Shown here in pieces: positions 8,787-27,679 of a stretch of 64,000 nt of DNA. Both the position numbers and the translations under genes were made by a program. This DNA is from Candidatus Tayloriibacteriota bacterium (GTDB lineage Bacteria; Patescibacteriota; Minisyncoccia; Phycocordibacterales; CAIRYW01). Numbering within the stretch: position 1 is the first letter of the stretch; each line of letters opens with the position of its first letter. The notes under the pieces were generated by a model. That model made no database searches, was not told the DNA's origin, and saw only the letters and a list, made by a program, of their open reading frames with translations. The stretch is taken from positions 15,216-79,215 of the forward strand of contig JAQBQZ010000013.1 in the NCBI GenBank assembly GCA_028286725.1, read 5' to 3'.

Positions 8787-9005
8787 CAAAACGGTATTTC
8801 AAAAAAGAGCCCTGCGGCTCTTTTTTGCGTTTTGTGCGAGCCGGAATATATGGCTTTGCCATAATGAGGCGGGGTCGCAAGTACTTAGTAGAATTCAAGC
8901 GAAGCGAAGAATTATACTTAGTAACTTGTGACCACAAAATATACAAAAAACTGTAAGTTTCGAGTTCTTCTCTATAAGACTGTGCCCGAGTCTTCTCTCG
9001 CGCAC
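8787..9005. repeat. tRNA-Leu-linked structured element ending in a 19-bp direct copy of the tRNA 3' end
   Basis: cgagtcttctctcgcgcac at 8769-8787 and 8987-9005; degenerate copy at 8959-8973; long hairpin ~8873-8933. Confidence 0.85.
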
Positions 9006-10663: not shown

Positions 10664-10742
10664 TAGGCTATCAAAAGAAATACTAGATTTATATTGATTT
10701 TTCTGGTATAAATTGATTACTTCATATTTTTGAAGGATGTAT

Positions 10743-10814
10743 GGCGACTATAGTTTAGTGGCAAAACTCCGGTTTGTGGAACCGGTATCGAGAGTTCGAT
10801 TCTCTCTAGCCGCC
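10743..10814 (+). tRNA. tRNA-His(GTG) with encoded G-1 and C73
   Basis: Anticodon arm ccggt-ttgtgga-accgg; T arm gagag-ttcgatt-ctctc. Confidence 0.95.
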
Positions 10815-10872
10815 CATGATTTAAAAAAGAAAACACCCTCTGCTGGGTGTTTTCTTTTTTAATCACAGCGAA

Positions 10873-11104
10873 GCTAGAGAGAATCGAATGGCGGAGGCAT
10901 ATTTTCTGAGTACAGAAAATGCCGAGCCGGTGCCCAGGACAAATACGAGCGACGGCGAGTATTTAGTCCGCGGGCGATTCTCTCTAGCCCTCGGGGACTT
11001 GCGTGAGAGAATCGAAGCCCGATTGAGCAAATTTTGAGAGTGAAGCGAATCAAAATTTCCAATCGGGATACTGGTCGTGTAACGACCGATAGCTCTCTAG
11101 CCGC
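10873..11104. repeat. two tandem tRNA-His-linked structured units (scaffold A 10873-10989, scaffold B ~10993-11104)
   Basis: Inverted T-arm copies 10873-10888 and 11005-11016; direct copies 10975-10989 and 11087-11104. Confidence 0.85.
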
Positions 11105-11129
11105 TTCCCAAATCTGCTATAATTATCTA

Positions 11130-11750
11130 ATGACCACCCTCCCAATTATCGGTATGAGCCCAGGCAATAGCTACTTTAAATATGGAGTAGTAAAAGAATT
11201 ACTTCAGAAAGTTGTAGAGAAATATGGAAAAGCTGCAATCATGATTGCCGATGTTCCAGCGATTTCAACTTATGTTGCACTTGGGTATCCTCAGAATAGA
11301 GCAAGAAGGGATAAAGCTCTTCCTCAAGGTAATGCGCTCAAAAATAAAGTTAAGAAAGCTATGGTTGAATTAGGCTACAGCGCAGATCAAGTGATAATTA
11401 TTGATTGGAAAAATCAAATTGAAAATAATTCAGAATACAAAGAAAAATATAGTTTGATAGAAGGGTTGTATCAAACCAATTCTTTGTTTCAAAACGCTGC
11501 AGACGCTACGACAAAAGGTATATTGGCTGGCGCAGGCGAGGAGATTCTTGATTTACCTGATTCAATAAAAATCGCTGCGCATTATCTCTTGGCAGAGATC
11601 GCTTTTATGGAATTTGCTCCAGACTTTTTGAAAGTAAAAAAGGCTACATATATTTACCATAGAAGCTGGCCAGTATTTGAAAGTTATATAGACGGGAAGT
11701 TTGATGATAAATCAAAAGATTATTTAGGATTTGAGATTATTGAGATTTAA
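11130..11750 (+). CDS. tRNA-dependent cyclodipeptide synthase (CDPS, NYH-type); start likely ATG 11130
   Basis: GMSPGNSYF (catalytic Ser, Asn), YLLAE (Tyr, Glu), YIYH; TGCTATAAT 6 nt before the ATG. Confidence 0.85.
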   Translation: MTTLPIIGMSPGNSYFKYGVVKELLQKVVEKYGKAAIMIADVPAISTYVALGYPQNRARRDKALPQGNALKNKVKKAMVELGYSADQVIIIDWKNQIENNSEYKEKYSLIEGLYQTNSLFQNAADATTKGILAGAGEEILDLPDSIKIAAHYLLAEIAFMEFAPDFLKVKKATYIYHRSWPVFESYIDGKFDDKSKDYLGFEIIEI

Positions 11751-26081: not shown

Positions 26082-26261
26082 ATGTCTAAAATCACTGATT
26101 ATTTTAAAGAAGTAAAGGCAGAAATGGCACATGTAACATGGCCTTCAAGAAAGCAGACGACTCTGTTTACTCTTGTGGTTATTATTATTTCTCTCGTTGT
26201 TGCAATATACCTTGGACTTTTGGATTATGTTATCCGTATTGGATTCGGTAAACTGTTTTAA
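26082..26261 (+). CDS. secE: preprotein translocase subunit SecE (59 aa, below ORF-track cutoff)
   Basis: MSKITDYFKEVKAEMAHVTWPSRKQT + TM; directly upstream of nusG. Confidence 0.95.
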   Translation: MSKITDYFKEVKAEMAHVTWPSRKQTTLFTLVVIIISLVVAIYLGLLDYVIRIGFGKLF

Positions 26262-26289: not shown

Positions 26290-26832
26290 ATGTCAAAACA
26301 AGCAGAAGGAGAGCGAAACTGGTATGCGATCCACACATACGCTGGATACGAGAACGCGGTGCTTCGAAACTTGAAGCAGCGAATCGAATCTTTGGGAATG
26401 GAGGACAGAATTTTTAATGTACTTGTTCCAACAGAAAAGAAAATCAAAGTTAAAGGTGGTAAGCGAGTAGAAGATGAGGAAAAAATCTACCCAGGATACA
26501 TTCTTGTGGATATGATTGTGACTGATGACTCTTGGTATGTGGTAAGAAACACTCCTCGAGTAACAGGATTCGTTGGATCTGGAGTATATCCTGTGCCTCT
26601 TGATAAGAAAGAAGTGGAAGTGCTATTCTCACGAATGAACTCGGGTACAGCAAAGCACAATATTGATCTTGATGTAGGGGACGCGGTTATCATCTCAGAC
26701 GGACCATTCAAGGACCTTGAAGGTAAGGTTGGGGAGGTTGACAGCGAGCGAGGAAAGGTTAAGGTATTAGTATCGATGTTCGGACGAGAGACTCCGGTGG
26801 AGCTCGACTTCCTACAGATCAAGAAAATATAA
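26290..26832 (+). CDS. nusG: transcription termination/antitermination factor NusG
   Basis: WYAIHTYAGYE, PGY, VRNTPRVTGF, KOW, FGRETPVEL. Confidence 0.98.
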   Translation: MSKQAEGERNWYAIHTYAGYENAVLRNLKQRIESLGMEDRIFNVLVPTEKKIKVKGGKRVEDEEKIYPGYILVDMIVTDDSWYVVRNTPRVTGFVGSGVYPVPLDKKEVEVLFSRMNSGTAKHNIDLDVGDAVIISDGPFKDLEGKVGEVDSERGKVKVLVSMFGRETPVELDFLQIKKI

Positions 26833-26902: not shown

Positions 26903-27325
26903 ATGGCAAAGAAAGTATTAAAGAAATTAAAGCTAGTTATTCCAGCAGGTAAAGCAACGCCTGCGCCGCCAGTAGGTCCAGCTCTCGGTCAGGCAGGTAT
27001 CAACATTGGAGACTTCGTAAAGAAGTTCAATGATGCTACAGCACAGATGCAGGGTGATATTATCCCAGTAGAAATCTCAGTATACGAAGACCGATCTTAC
27101 GATTTCGTTTTGAAGACTCCTCCAGCATCAGCTCTTGTAAAAAAGATGTTGAAGCTCGAAAGTGGTTCAGGAGAAAACCTTAAGAAGAAGGTGGGAACAA
27201 TCACAAAGGCACAGATCCGAGAAATTGCAGAAAAGAAAATGCCAGACCTAAACGCTGGATCAATCGAAGCTGCAATGAAGATCATCGAAGGAACTTGCAA
27301 ATCAATGGGCGTCGAGGTGAAATAG
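26903..27325 (+). CDS. rplK: 50S ribosomal protein L11
   Basis: [29 protein letters not shown]. Confidence 0.98.
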
Positions 27326-27328
27326 GTA

Positions 27329-27414
27329 ACTTCGACGGGTCGGAGGCTGATGAAGCCGAGACGGGCCTGCGCAACTTTTCAGCAGAAAAGTATGTGTAGG
27401 TTGAAGTGAAATAA
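27329..27414. repeat. rplK-linked structured element (scaffold A)
   Basis: acttcgacg is the inverse of the rplK end; gtcGGAGGC..GCCGAgac core; gttgaagtgaaataa copies the rplK end gtcgaggtgaaatag. Confidence 0.7.
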
Positions 27415-27517
27415 ATAGACTTAAAATAAAAATGCACGGCGCCTACGGCGCCGTGCATTTTTATTATTGTTGTGTTACGTTTATTTAAACCCGTTATTTT
27501 AGGAAGGAGGTGAAAAT

Positions 27518-27679
27518 ATGACTGAACCTGTTCCAGATTATTGGACCAAGACAAGGATGGAGTATCATGCGCGCGGAGTGATGTATGACCCGAGACGGAT
27601 GCGTTTCTGGATGCACCACTGCCAGCCAATGTTCCGACCACAACCGAAAGTCCCCGTGCAACCAGAAGTGGCACCATAA
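27518..27679 (+). CDS. small hypothetical protein, 53 aa (not in ORF track)
   Basis: Strong SD AGGAGGTG, ORF MTEPVPDYWTKTRMEYHARG...VAP, own terminator ccagcatc/gatgctgg+T. Confidence 0.55.
   Translation: MTEPVPDYWTKTRMEYHARGVMYDPRRMRFWMHHCQPMFRPQPKVPVQPEVAP

Follow-up and report, generated by a model that had tools for sequence, protein, structure and literature searches.

Why does the gene for ribosomal protein L11 carry its own 3′ end twice? In the window analysed here, which is the whole stretch of 64,000 nucleotides taken from contig JAQBQZ010000013.1 of a Candidatus Tayloriibacteriota bacterium, rplK is followed by an inverse copy of its last bases, two hairpins and a second, in-frame copy of the gene end. 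We propose that this unit is a copy of a widespread, gene-less, self-folding repeat of Patescibacteria that is likely to have entered by recombination in the last 15-30 bases of rplK, and we put the probability of this reading at about 0.5. The case adds a protein-coding host gene to the picture, which is valuable because such a host has synonymous markers, absent from tRNA hosts, that tell an imported from a resident gene end and would thus indicate the direction of insertion.

The unit behind rplK

The genes secE, nusG and rplK follow one another in this order, with rplK as the last of the three and no rplA behind it. The unit and its surroundings comprise the following features.

26082-26261, + strand: secE (ORF list)
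26290-26832, + strand: nusG (ORF list)
26903..27325, + strand: rplK, the host gene, encoding ribosomal protein L11 (ORF list; Pfam Ribosomal_L11_N and Ribosomal_L11)
27310..27325, + strand: X1, the gene-attached copy of the gene end (cgtcgaggtgaaatag, VEVK*; sequence, RNA and DNA folds)
27329..27337, + strand: X′, the inverse copy of the gene end (acttcgacg; sequence, RNA and DNA folds)
27339..27362, + strand: hairpin P2, gtc-GGA-GGC(t)-gatga-(a)GCC-GA-gac (sequence, covariation)
27366..27400, + strand: hairpin P3, cctgcgca-acttttc-agca-gaaaagt-A-tgtgtagg (sequence, folds, covariation)
27400..27414, + strand: X2, the second in-frame copy of the gene end (gttgaagtgaaataa, VEVK*; sequence)
27433..27462, + strand: intrinsic terminator, an 11-bp G+C-rich stem followed by TTTTT (sequence, RNA fold)
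27518-27679, + strand: 53-codon ORF with a strong ribosome-binding site, between two terminators (no Pfam or NCBIfam match)

The rplK product has both L11 domains, N- and C-terminal, by Pfam, and the 3′ end of the gene reads gtcgaggtgaaatag, with the stop codon at 27323-27325. Read from the sequence, the order behind the gene is X1-loop-X′-P2-P3-X2, then a separate terminator; the gene end, inverse copy, core, second arm and VEVK* duplicate that an earlier note on this DNA had described are all where it had placed them. X1 (cgtcgaggt-gaaatag) supplies the 5′ arm of a hairpin, P0, and some of its loop; in both the RNA and the DNA folds it pairs with 27329-27337. Three bases separate X1 from X′, and the pairing of acttcgacg with cgtcgaggt (27310-27318) takes in nine positions, eight of them Watson–Crick and one G:T. 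X′ has two possible partners, namely X1, giving hairpin P0, or X2, giving a closing stem, P1. P2 is made up of a base (gtc/gac), an internal loop (GGA/GA) and a stem (GGCt/aGCC), with C-GGA...GA-G kept across the family described below, while P3 is a long arm with the loop AGCA; the conserved bulges of the unit are a G in P2 and an A in P3. X2 differs from the gene end at three positions, all three synonymous.

The terminator at 27433-27462 closes the rplK operon behind the unit and lies outside the repeat. The same terminator stands 3′ of rplK in three relatives (L002, L004, L005), and in what is likely the source metagenome its depth is about 4.5 times that of the neighbouring sequence, with loose ends on both sides. 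The recurrence behind rplK and the raised depth together mark the terminator as a repeated module too.

The pattern GGAGGC-N(4-30)-GCCGA occurs twice in the window against 0.08 expected, and none of 100 shuffles reaches two. A wider-spaced version of the pattern has eight matches genome-wide, and by eye only two of these, the rplK and His units, enclose a hairpin. Folding of 27300-27470 as RNA gives a z-score of -9.3, with exactly the named hairpins formed; as DNA, the sense strand folds at -20.4 kcal/mol (z -5.0) versus -13.3 kcal/mol (z -3.2) for the opposite strand. Known RNA classes do not account for these folds. With Rfam 15 at the gathering score, only the three tRNAs match in the window, and a search with permissive filters over 27200-27520 and 10700-11150 returned nothing at threshold. 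The match to the L20 leader reached 24.4 bits against a threshold of 58.7 and fell mostly on the terminator. There is no T run directly behind P3 or X2, which sets the unit apart from an intrinsic terminator. In annotation, such units should not be named leaders, terminators or pseudo-tRNAs.

Family, hosts and turnover

We built a covariance model, R1, on nine rplK-linked units. R1 finds five copies in the window’s own genome (G000) and matches in 21 of 21 family genomes, with 3-16 copies each; at E ≤ 1e-5 it matches 84 of the 151 genomes of the order, with up to 28 copies per genome. The type that it describes, here called scaffold A, has a patchy spread and a variable copy number. Among the nine rplK-linked units, 94.3% of the cells are paired and 12 of 29 pairs change on both sides, a result equalled in none of 500 shuffles. 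For 43 family hits from 33 sources, in an alignment that was fitted to the covariance model and hence leans towards it, 95.5% of the cells pair, and changes on both sides are seen in 26 of 29 pairs. All four pairs of the P2 upper stem show two-sided changes, both in the nine units and in the 43 hits. In P3, the 43 hits have 55 G:T cells and no A:C cells, with G:T pairs on the sense strand only, so that it is this strand, be it RNA or single-stranded DNA, that folds.

The upstream neighbours of 41 classified hits were rplK (8), rplL (3, assigned from the tail AGGKVTLK* alone), other protein genes (3) and tRNA 3′ ends (14); of the other classified hits, a few lie beside 5′ tRNA half-copies, and the remainder are nested in a second unit type, scaffold B, or are orphans. 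The tRNA hosts of scaffold A are Val, Ser, Leu, Ile, Arg, Glu and Tyr. Since hits lie behind protein genes as well as tRNAs, the design of gene end, inverse copy, core and gene end is not restricted to tRNA genes, as the earlier note had maintained. In shuffle tests of the flanks of the 41 hits, p ≤ 0.01 was reached for X′ in 12, for X2 in 13 and for both in 5, and many family copies are without a matching flank in these tests; both kinds of flank test (ungapped against other loci, and shuffles) have low power because targets are common to several loci and G+C-rich 16-mers pair easily. The earlier note had asked whether the motif might be an already described leader or terminator, or occur widely with no flank matching its neighbour. 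Rfam offers no family, leader or terminator that matches it, and most copies at gene ends have matching flanks, while a sizeable minority (nested and orphan copies) has none.

Comparing rplK 3′ regions in relatives for empty sites, as that note had proposed, yielded both states of the site. Of 30 rplK loci, taken from 38 relatives with a match, 16 run straight to the terminator and 14 are occupied by scaffold A, scaffold B, both or remnants. Scaffold A stands behind rplK in G000, G005, G012, G029 and G019 and as a tandem pair in G017; in G009 and G011 it is preceded by a unit of scaffold B. Seven loci have scaffold B (CTTTTGAG...CCAAAAGGTGTACTG..CCTGTAAGG) behind rplK, and remnants are present in G007. 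The rplK-linked scaffold-A units form a sequence subtype of their own, present in at least five genera. Identity between the units of G000 and G005 is 80% right through; the unit thus looks inherited within the genus, which leaves room for long residence and for a function in the transcript.

Two tRNA-linked copies in the window bear on how the units are put together.

10878..10987, + strand: tRNA-His unit 1, a sister variant that shares P2 and the layout and differs in the second hairpin (14.3 bits)
8827..8946, + strand: scaffold-A-like copy behind tRNA-Leu(gag) (31.8 bits)

The tRNA-His unit reaches its score against R1 over the full model in an unfiltered search, and the filtered whole-genome search misses it. 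Compared with 103 bits for the rplK unit, this makes it a sister variant of shared modules on a different scaffold. The earlier note had placed both units on one scaffold, and this stands for three shared features, namely the C-GGA-stem-GA-G of the first hairpin, the layout of the junction and the A bulge; it does not stand for the second hairpin, which in the tRNA-His unit differs and has the loop GAGCGACGGCGA. The same loop is found in a relative’s rplL-linked unit together with P2, and as a separate small hairpin elsewhere (four sequences with this loop entered the comparison). The elements look modular: P2, either of two P3 types, the B hairpins and various first hairpins occur in differing combinations. 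Among loci L015, L035, L046 and L060, some scaffold-A copies lie inside scaffold B, at the same point each time (after CCAAAAGGT), and open with a hairpin of their own with the loop GAAYACTTRR. A further scaffold-A subtype opens with a hairpin that has a GGGTTGGGGCCC-like loop.

Behind tRNA-Leu(gag), the last five bases of the tRNA form the base of a long hairpin that bears the terminator at its tip; the inverse copy makes up the 3′ half of this hairpin. The orthologous locus (window 8788-9005; loci L069-L073) has six layouts in six genomes of the genus, one of them empty; the trailers consist of nothing, an A variant, B plus A, B plus a His-type unit, or B only, and the terminator hairpin is among the parts combined. 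By eye, an intrinsic terminator lies between the tRNA and X′ in at least 7 of the 14 tRNA-linked copies. This places the core behind a terminator and counts against a purely RNA-level role. Direct repeats of 18/18 nt, from the T loop to the tRNA 3′ end, are present in L050, L053 and L054 (tRNA-Leu, tRNA-Tyr). In searches of the open-access literature on tRNA-gene repeats in Patescibacteria and the Candidate Phyla Radiation, such elements were not found described, which is not proof of their absence from it.

Probable imported and resident gene ends

If a unit carries a gene end with it, X′ should tell from which gene end it came. In seven of the eight rplK-linked copies scored, X′ matches the copy directly upstream by 9-12 nt within the first 18 nt, and G029 agrees by eye; five different gene-end sequences are present, each matched by its own X′. 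The tandem pair in G017 is the most informative arrangement. Here the gene end (gtgcgttag) is followed by unit 1, a middle copy (gtaagataa), unit 2 and a further copy; the X′ of unit 2 matches the middle copy, and the middle copy is the gene end of the sister genome G019. Gene end and middle copy in G017 both read VEVR*, with different arginine codons. From this arrangement, a new unit seems to enter beside the gene and to bring a new gene end with it.

The window’s own genome offers a similar view. Between G000 and its closest relative, G007, rplK is 87-100% identical in thirteen 30-nt windows and 60% identical in the last, where a serine codon belongs to the other codon family. The last 27 nt of rplK in G000 are closest (81%) to G012, which belongs to another genus and has the unit, and P3 and X2 of G000 are 95% and 93% identical to those of G029, which belongs to another GTDB family and whose rplK protein is 69% identical. 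A downstream copy of the gene end with an in-register stop within 200 nt occurs at 13 of the 30 rplK loci, all of them occupied, and at none of the 16 loci without a unit. These downstream copies (VEVK*, VEVR*, VDVK*, FEVI*, VDMI*, VDIA*) contain a stop codon in each case and resemble natural L11 tails. Taken together, the sequence comparison suggests that X1 and X′ were imported and that X2 is the displaced resident end. The earlier proposal, that a synonymous duplicate is the trace of an element that restores the end of its target, fits these comparative data.

Some details do not follow this scheme so closely. In G011, X′ matches neither adjacent copy and matches the G029 allele instead, which a simple crossover within X does not predict. 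In the window’s unit, two variable positions of X′ are those of X1 and the third is that of X2, which are too few markers to place a crossover. The excess of TAG stops at occupied rplK sites is weak, at 7 of 14 versus 3 of 16 (counted by eye, in related genomes that are not independent). Separately, a search for 12-nt gene-end copies without the stop condition gave 45 hits, 15 of them with a stop; these are mostly chance matches, which makes a count of synonymous and non-synonymous differences among them meaningless, and we rejected it.

Candidate mechanisms and rival readings

In the scheme that we favour, an imported gene end X1, its mirror X′ and the two hairpins would cap rplK, and the resident end X2 would be pushed downstream. 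The unit would pass between genomes together with the gene end, with homology provided on one side by the conserved gene and on the other by the duplicated gene end. It could be donated as a single strand in folded form, as happens with integron cassettes and CTX-type phages, or as DNA taken up in transformation. New units would enter at the gene-proximal copy and thereby build arrays, and recombination of X1 with X2 would remove a unit and leave the gene intact, which would explain why frame and stop are kept in the downstream copies. The layout X1-loop-X′-core-X2 would also result if a folded circle of single-stranded DNA, with a stem that mimics the double-stranded target, were joined to that target by exchange of one strand. 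A crossover about 30 nt upstream of the stop codon, as G000 appears to have, would favour the homology-driven route.

Candidate agents would be the single Xer-type recombinase, homologous recombination of the RecA type, or recombinases acting in trans. The genome has one tyrosine recombinase, of the XerD/XerC/XerA type, which scores 129.7 bits against an integron-integrase cut-off of 265 (TIGR02249). Its serine recombinases number three, and one of these (544 aa) overlaps the 3′ end of a tRNA-Ala about 0.1 kb from a scaffold-A copy. Serine recombinases are present in 18 of the 21 family genomes, some of them 1-7 kb from a copy; this closeness is anecdotal, as recombinases and copies both cluster at tRNA genes. 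In G017, with 6 copies and 91% completeness, a serine recombinase was not found. Profile searches of the window’s genome gave no matches for Y1 transposase (PF01797), IS110 or reverse transcriptase. Among the DNA contigs there was no joint that skips the unit; an odd joint within rplK, from 27094 to 27272 (depth 4.4, 7 mismatches), seems to stem from a different organism.

Three other explanations can be set against insertion by recombination. The unit could be a cis-acting RNA structure in a 3′ UTR or trailer that acts in stability, 3′ processing or protein binding, was spread by duplication and was kept because it is useful, which we hold to be possible though on balance unlikely. Covariation and G:U pairs on the transcribed strand speak for it, as do the covariation of the P0 stem with the gene end across genera, the coherence of the rplK-linked subtype in at least five genera and the fact that the hosts are highly expressed genes; moreover, the rplK unit lies ahead of its terminator and would thus be co-transcribed. 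It is harder to reconcile with the core lying behind the terminator in at least 7 of 14 tRNA-linked copies, with scaffolds A and B swapping or stacking at one site, with the unit being missing from 16 of 30 rplK loci and 67 of 151 genomes, or with six layouts at one tRNA locus within one genus. A trailer that pairs with the T arm would also hinder the folding of the tRNA, and an RNA function leaves the second gene-end copy, with its kept frame and stop, unexplained. In RNA data, two metatranscriptome runs from the study of the likely source sample had no match to the stretch, and a third RNA run yielded two contigs from relatives, which cover rplK only. It is considerably less probable that the units are decayed scars of integrase islands, similar to CIMEs, in which gene-end-specific integrases of the tyrosine or serine type would have left X1 and X2 as attL and attR, with the core as a remnant of the island. 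The direct repeats of 18/18 nt in L050, L053 and L054 would suit such scars, and so would the three serine recombinases, the one at tRNA-Ala included, and their presence in 18 of 21 family genomes, in some within 1-7 kb of a copy. Tandem arrays, too, resemble accretion at attR (PMC5704250). Against this, the core is a conserved, covarying structure in hundreds of copies, unlike random remains, and the inverse copy X′ belongs to neither attL nor attR. Serine integrases leave only a very short repeat, which also argues against such scars; further, the sole tyrosine recombinase of the genome is Xer-type, and G017 carries its copies with no serine recombinase found.

The remaining explanation, that the unit derives from the site at which L1 binds to autoregulate the L11-L1 operon, or is a variant of that site, is close to refuted. 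Its appeal lay in the position directly behind rplK, where rplA would come, and in the internal loop of the GGAGGC...GCCGAGA hairpin, which may resemble the L1 site on mRNA and 23S rRNA. The earlier note’s remark that rplA does not follow rplK is true, and beyond that locus ribosomal protein L1 (Ribosomal_L1, PF00687) is unmatched in the whole genome (906 kb; completeness given as 100). PF00687 was found in none of 41 genomes of an order sample, 36 of them at least 90% complete, while the same search matched 14 of 14 control genomes; loss of L1 has reportedly occurred in part of the Candidate Phyla Radiation. With L1 undetected in 41 genomes, any likeness to an L1 site is moot. In addition, the same hairpin stands behind tRNAs and other genes, scaffold B takes the place of the unit in other genomes, and no Rfam leader reaches the gathering score. 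We thus dropped the identification as an L1 leader.

Returning to insertion by recombination at the gene end, the closest parallels lie among known mobile elements. Integron cassettes (PMC5027507) consist of a core site, optional cargo, an inverse core site, an imperfect hairpin with unpaired bases and a core site. The present order is similar: X1 is followed by a loop, in some cases with a terminator in it, then by X′, by P2-P3 with their bulged G and A, and by X2. For integrons, the folding strand of attC is described as richer in G:T pairs, new cassettes as entering at the first position, and insertion as an exchange of one strand between the double-stranded target and the cassette, a single-stranded circle in folded form (PMC5027507). 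The unit is like attC in being a single-strand hairpin with unpaired bases and G:T pairs on one strand only, and its arrays would likewise grow from the gene-proximal copy. In contrast to the conserved GTTRRRY/RYYYAAC boxes given for attC (PMC5027507), the repeated box here is 8-19 nt of the end of the host gene (rplK, rplL or tRNA). Furthermore, the unit folds into a three-way junction whereas attC is a single hairpin, its folding strand is the sense strand of the host gene, most units are without a gene, and the genome is without an integron integrase. Gene-end-restoring integrative elements and CIMEs form tandem arrays at the displaced end (PMC5704250). As in a CIME, a duplicated gene end flanks the insert (X1/X2; 18/18 nt at tRNA-Leu and tRNA-Tyr) and the gene is intact; unlike a CIME, the insert is about 90 nt long with no decayed genes, has a conserved folded core and an inverse copy of the target, and exists in hundreds of copies on many different targets.

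The single Xer-type recombinase of the genome brings to mind CTX-type phages, which integrate through host Xer recombinases. In these phages (IMEX), a hairpin of single-stranded DNA imitates the double-stranded target and the host Xer makes a single strand exchange; they imitate one fixed dif site, whereas here the imitated sequence varies with the host gene. REP/BIME, REPIN and Correia elements are short, multicopy, folded and gene-less and lie at gene ends near terminators. They do not copy their neighbours, whereas the outer stems of the present units repeat the host gene end, once in mirror form and once directly; and unlike in the REP/RAYT system, no Y1 transposase of the RAYT type was found in the genome (PF01797, 0 matches).

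A more ambitious extension, which we advance tentatively and consider doubtful at present, is an integron-like platform without an integron integrase. Folded single-strand modules would use conserved gene ends (tRNAs, L11, L7/L12) as a programmable attachment site, re-cap the genes, stack, and carry terminators or genes, moved by the lone Xer or by transformation-driven recombination. Such modules, if this is true, would constitute mobile elements of a new class, through which organisms nearly devoid of classical mobile DNA could exchange genes. If the narrower reading is true, the ends of the most conserved genes of these reduced genomes would be hot spots at which small structured modules come in, stack and leave without damage to the gene. 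The puzzling tRNA-like fragments and duplicated gene ends of Patescibacteria assemblies would then have an explanation, and there would be a handle on DNA exchange among lineages with few transposases or plasmids. The reading may also point to recombination of folded single strands whose target sequences are defined by the host.

The tRNA-Ala locus on contig C9 combines several of these parts. At 86792-87048 (locus L066, 2291-2549), 26 nt copied from the 5′ part of tRNA-Ala precede a hairpin, the core of a scaffold-A unit and a copy of the anticodon arm; then come a copy of the rplK end with its flank and an intact tRNA-Ala. A 15-nt exact copy of X2 with a similar flank adjoins the scaffold-A copy there, and the 3′ part of tRNA-Ala is overlapped antisense by the end of the gene for the 544-aa large serine recombinase (L066 2522-4156, - strand). 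Downstream of rplK itself, the 53-codon ORF is followed by a convergent DHFR-like gene. Other small ORFs take the place of the 53-codon ORF in relatives, and the spacer up to the DHFR-like gene ranges from about 0.2 to about 1 kb among them.
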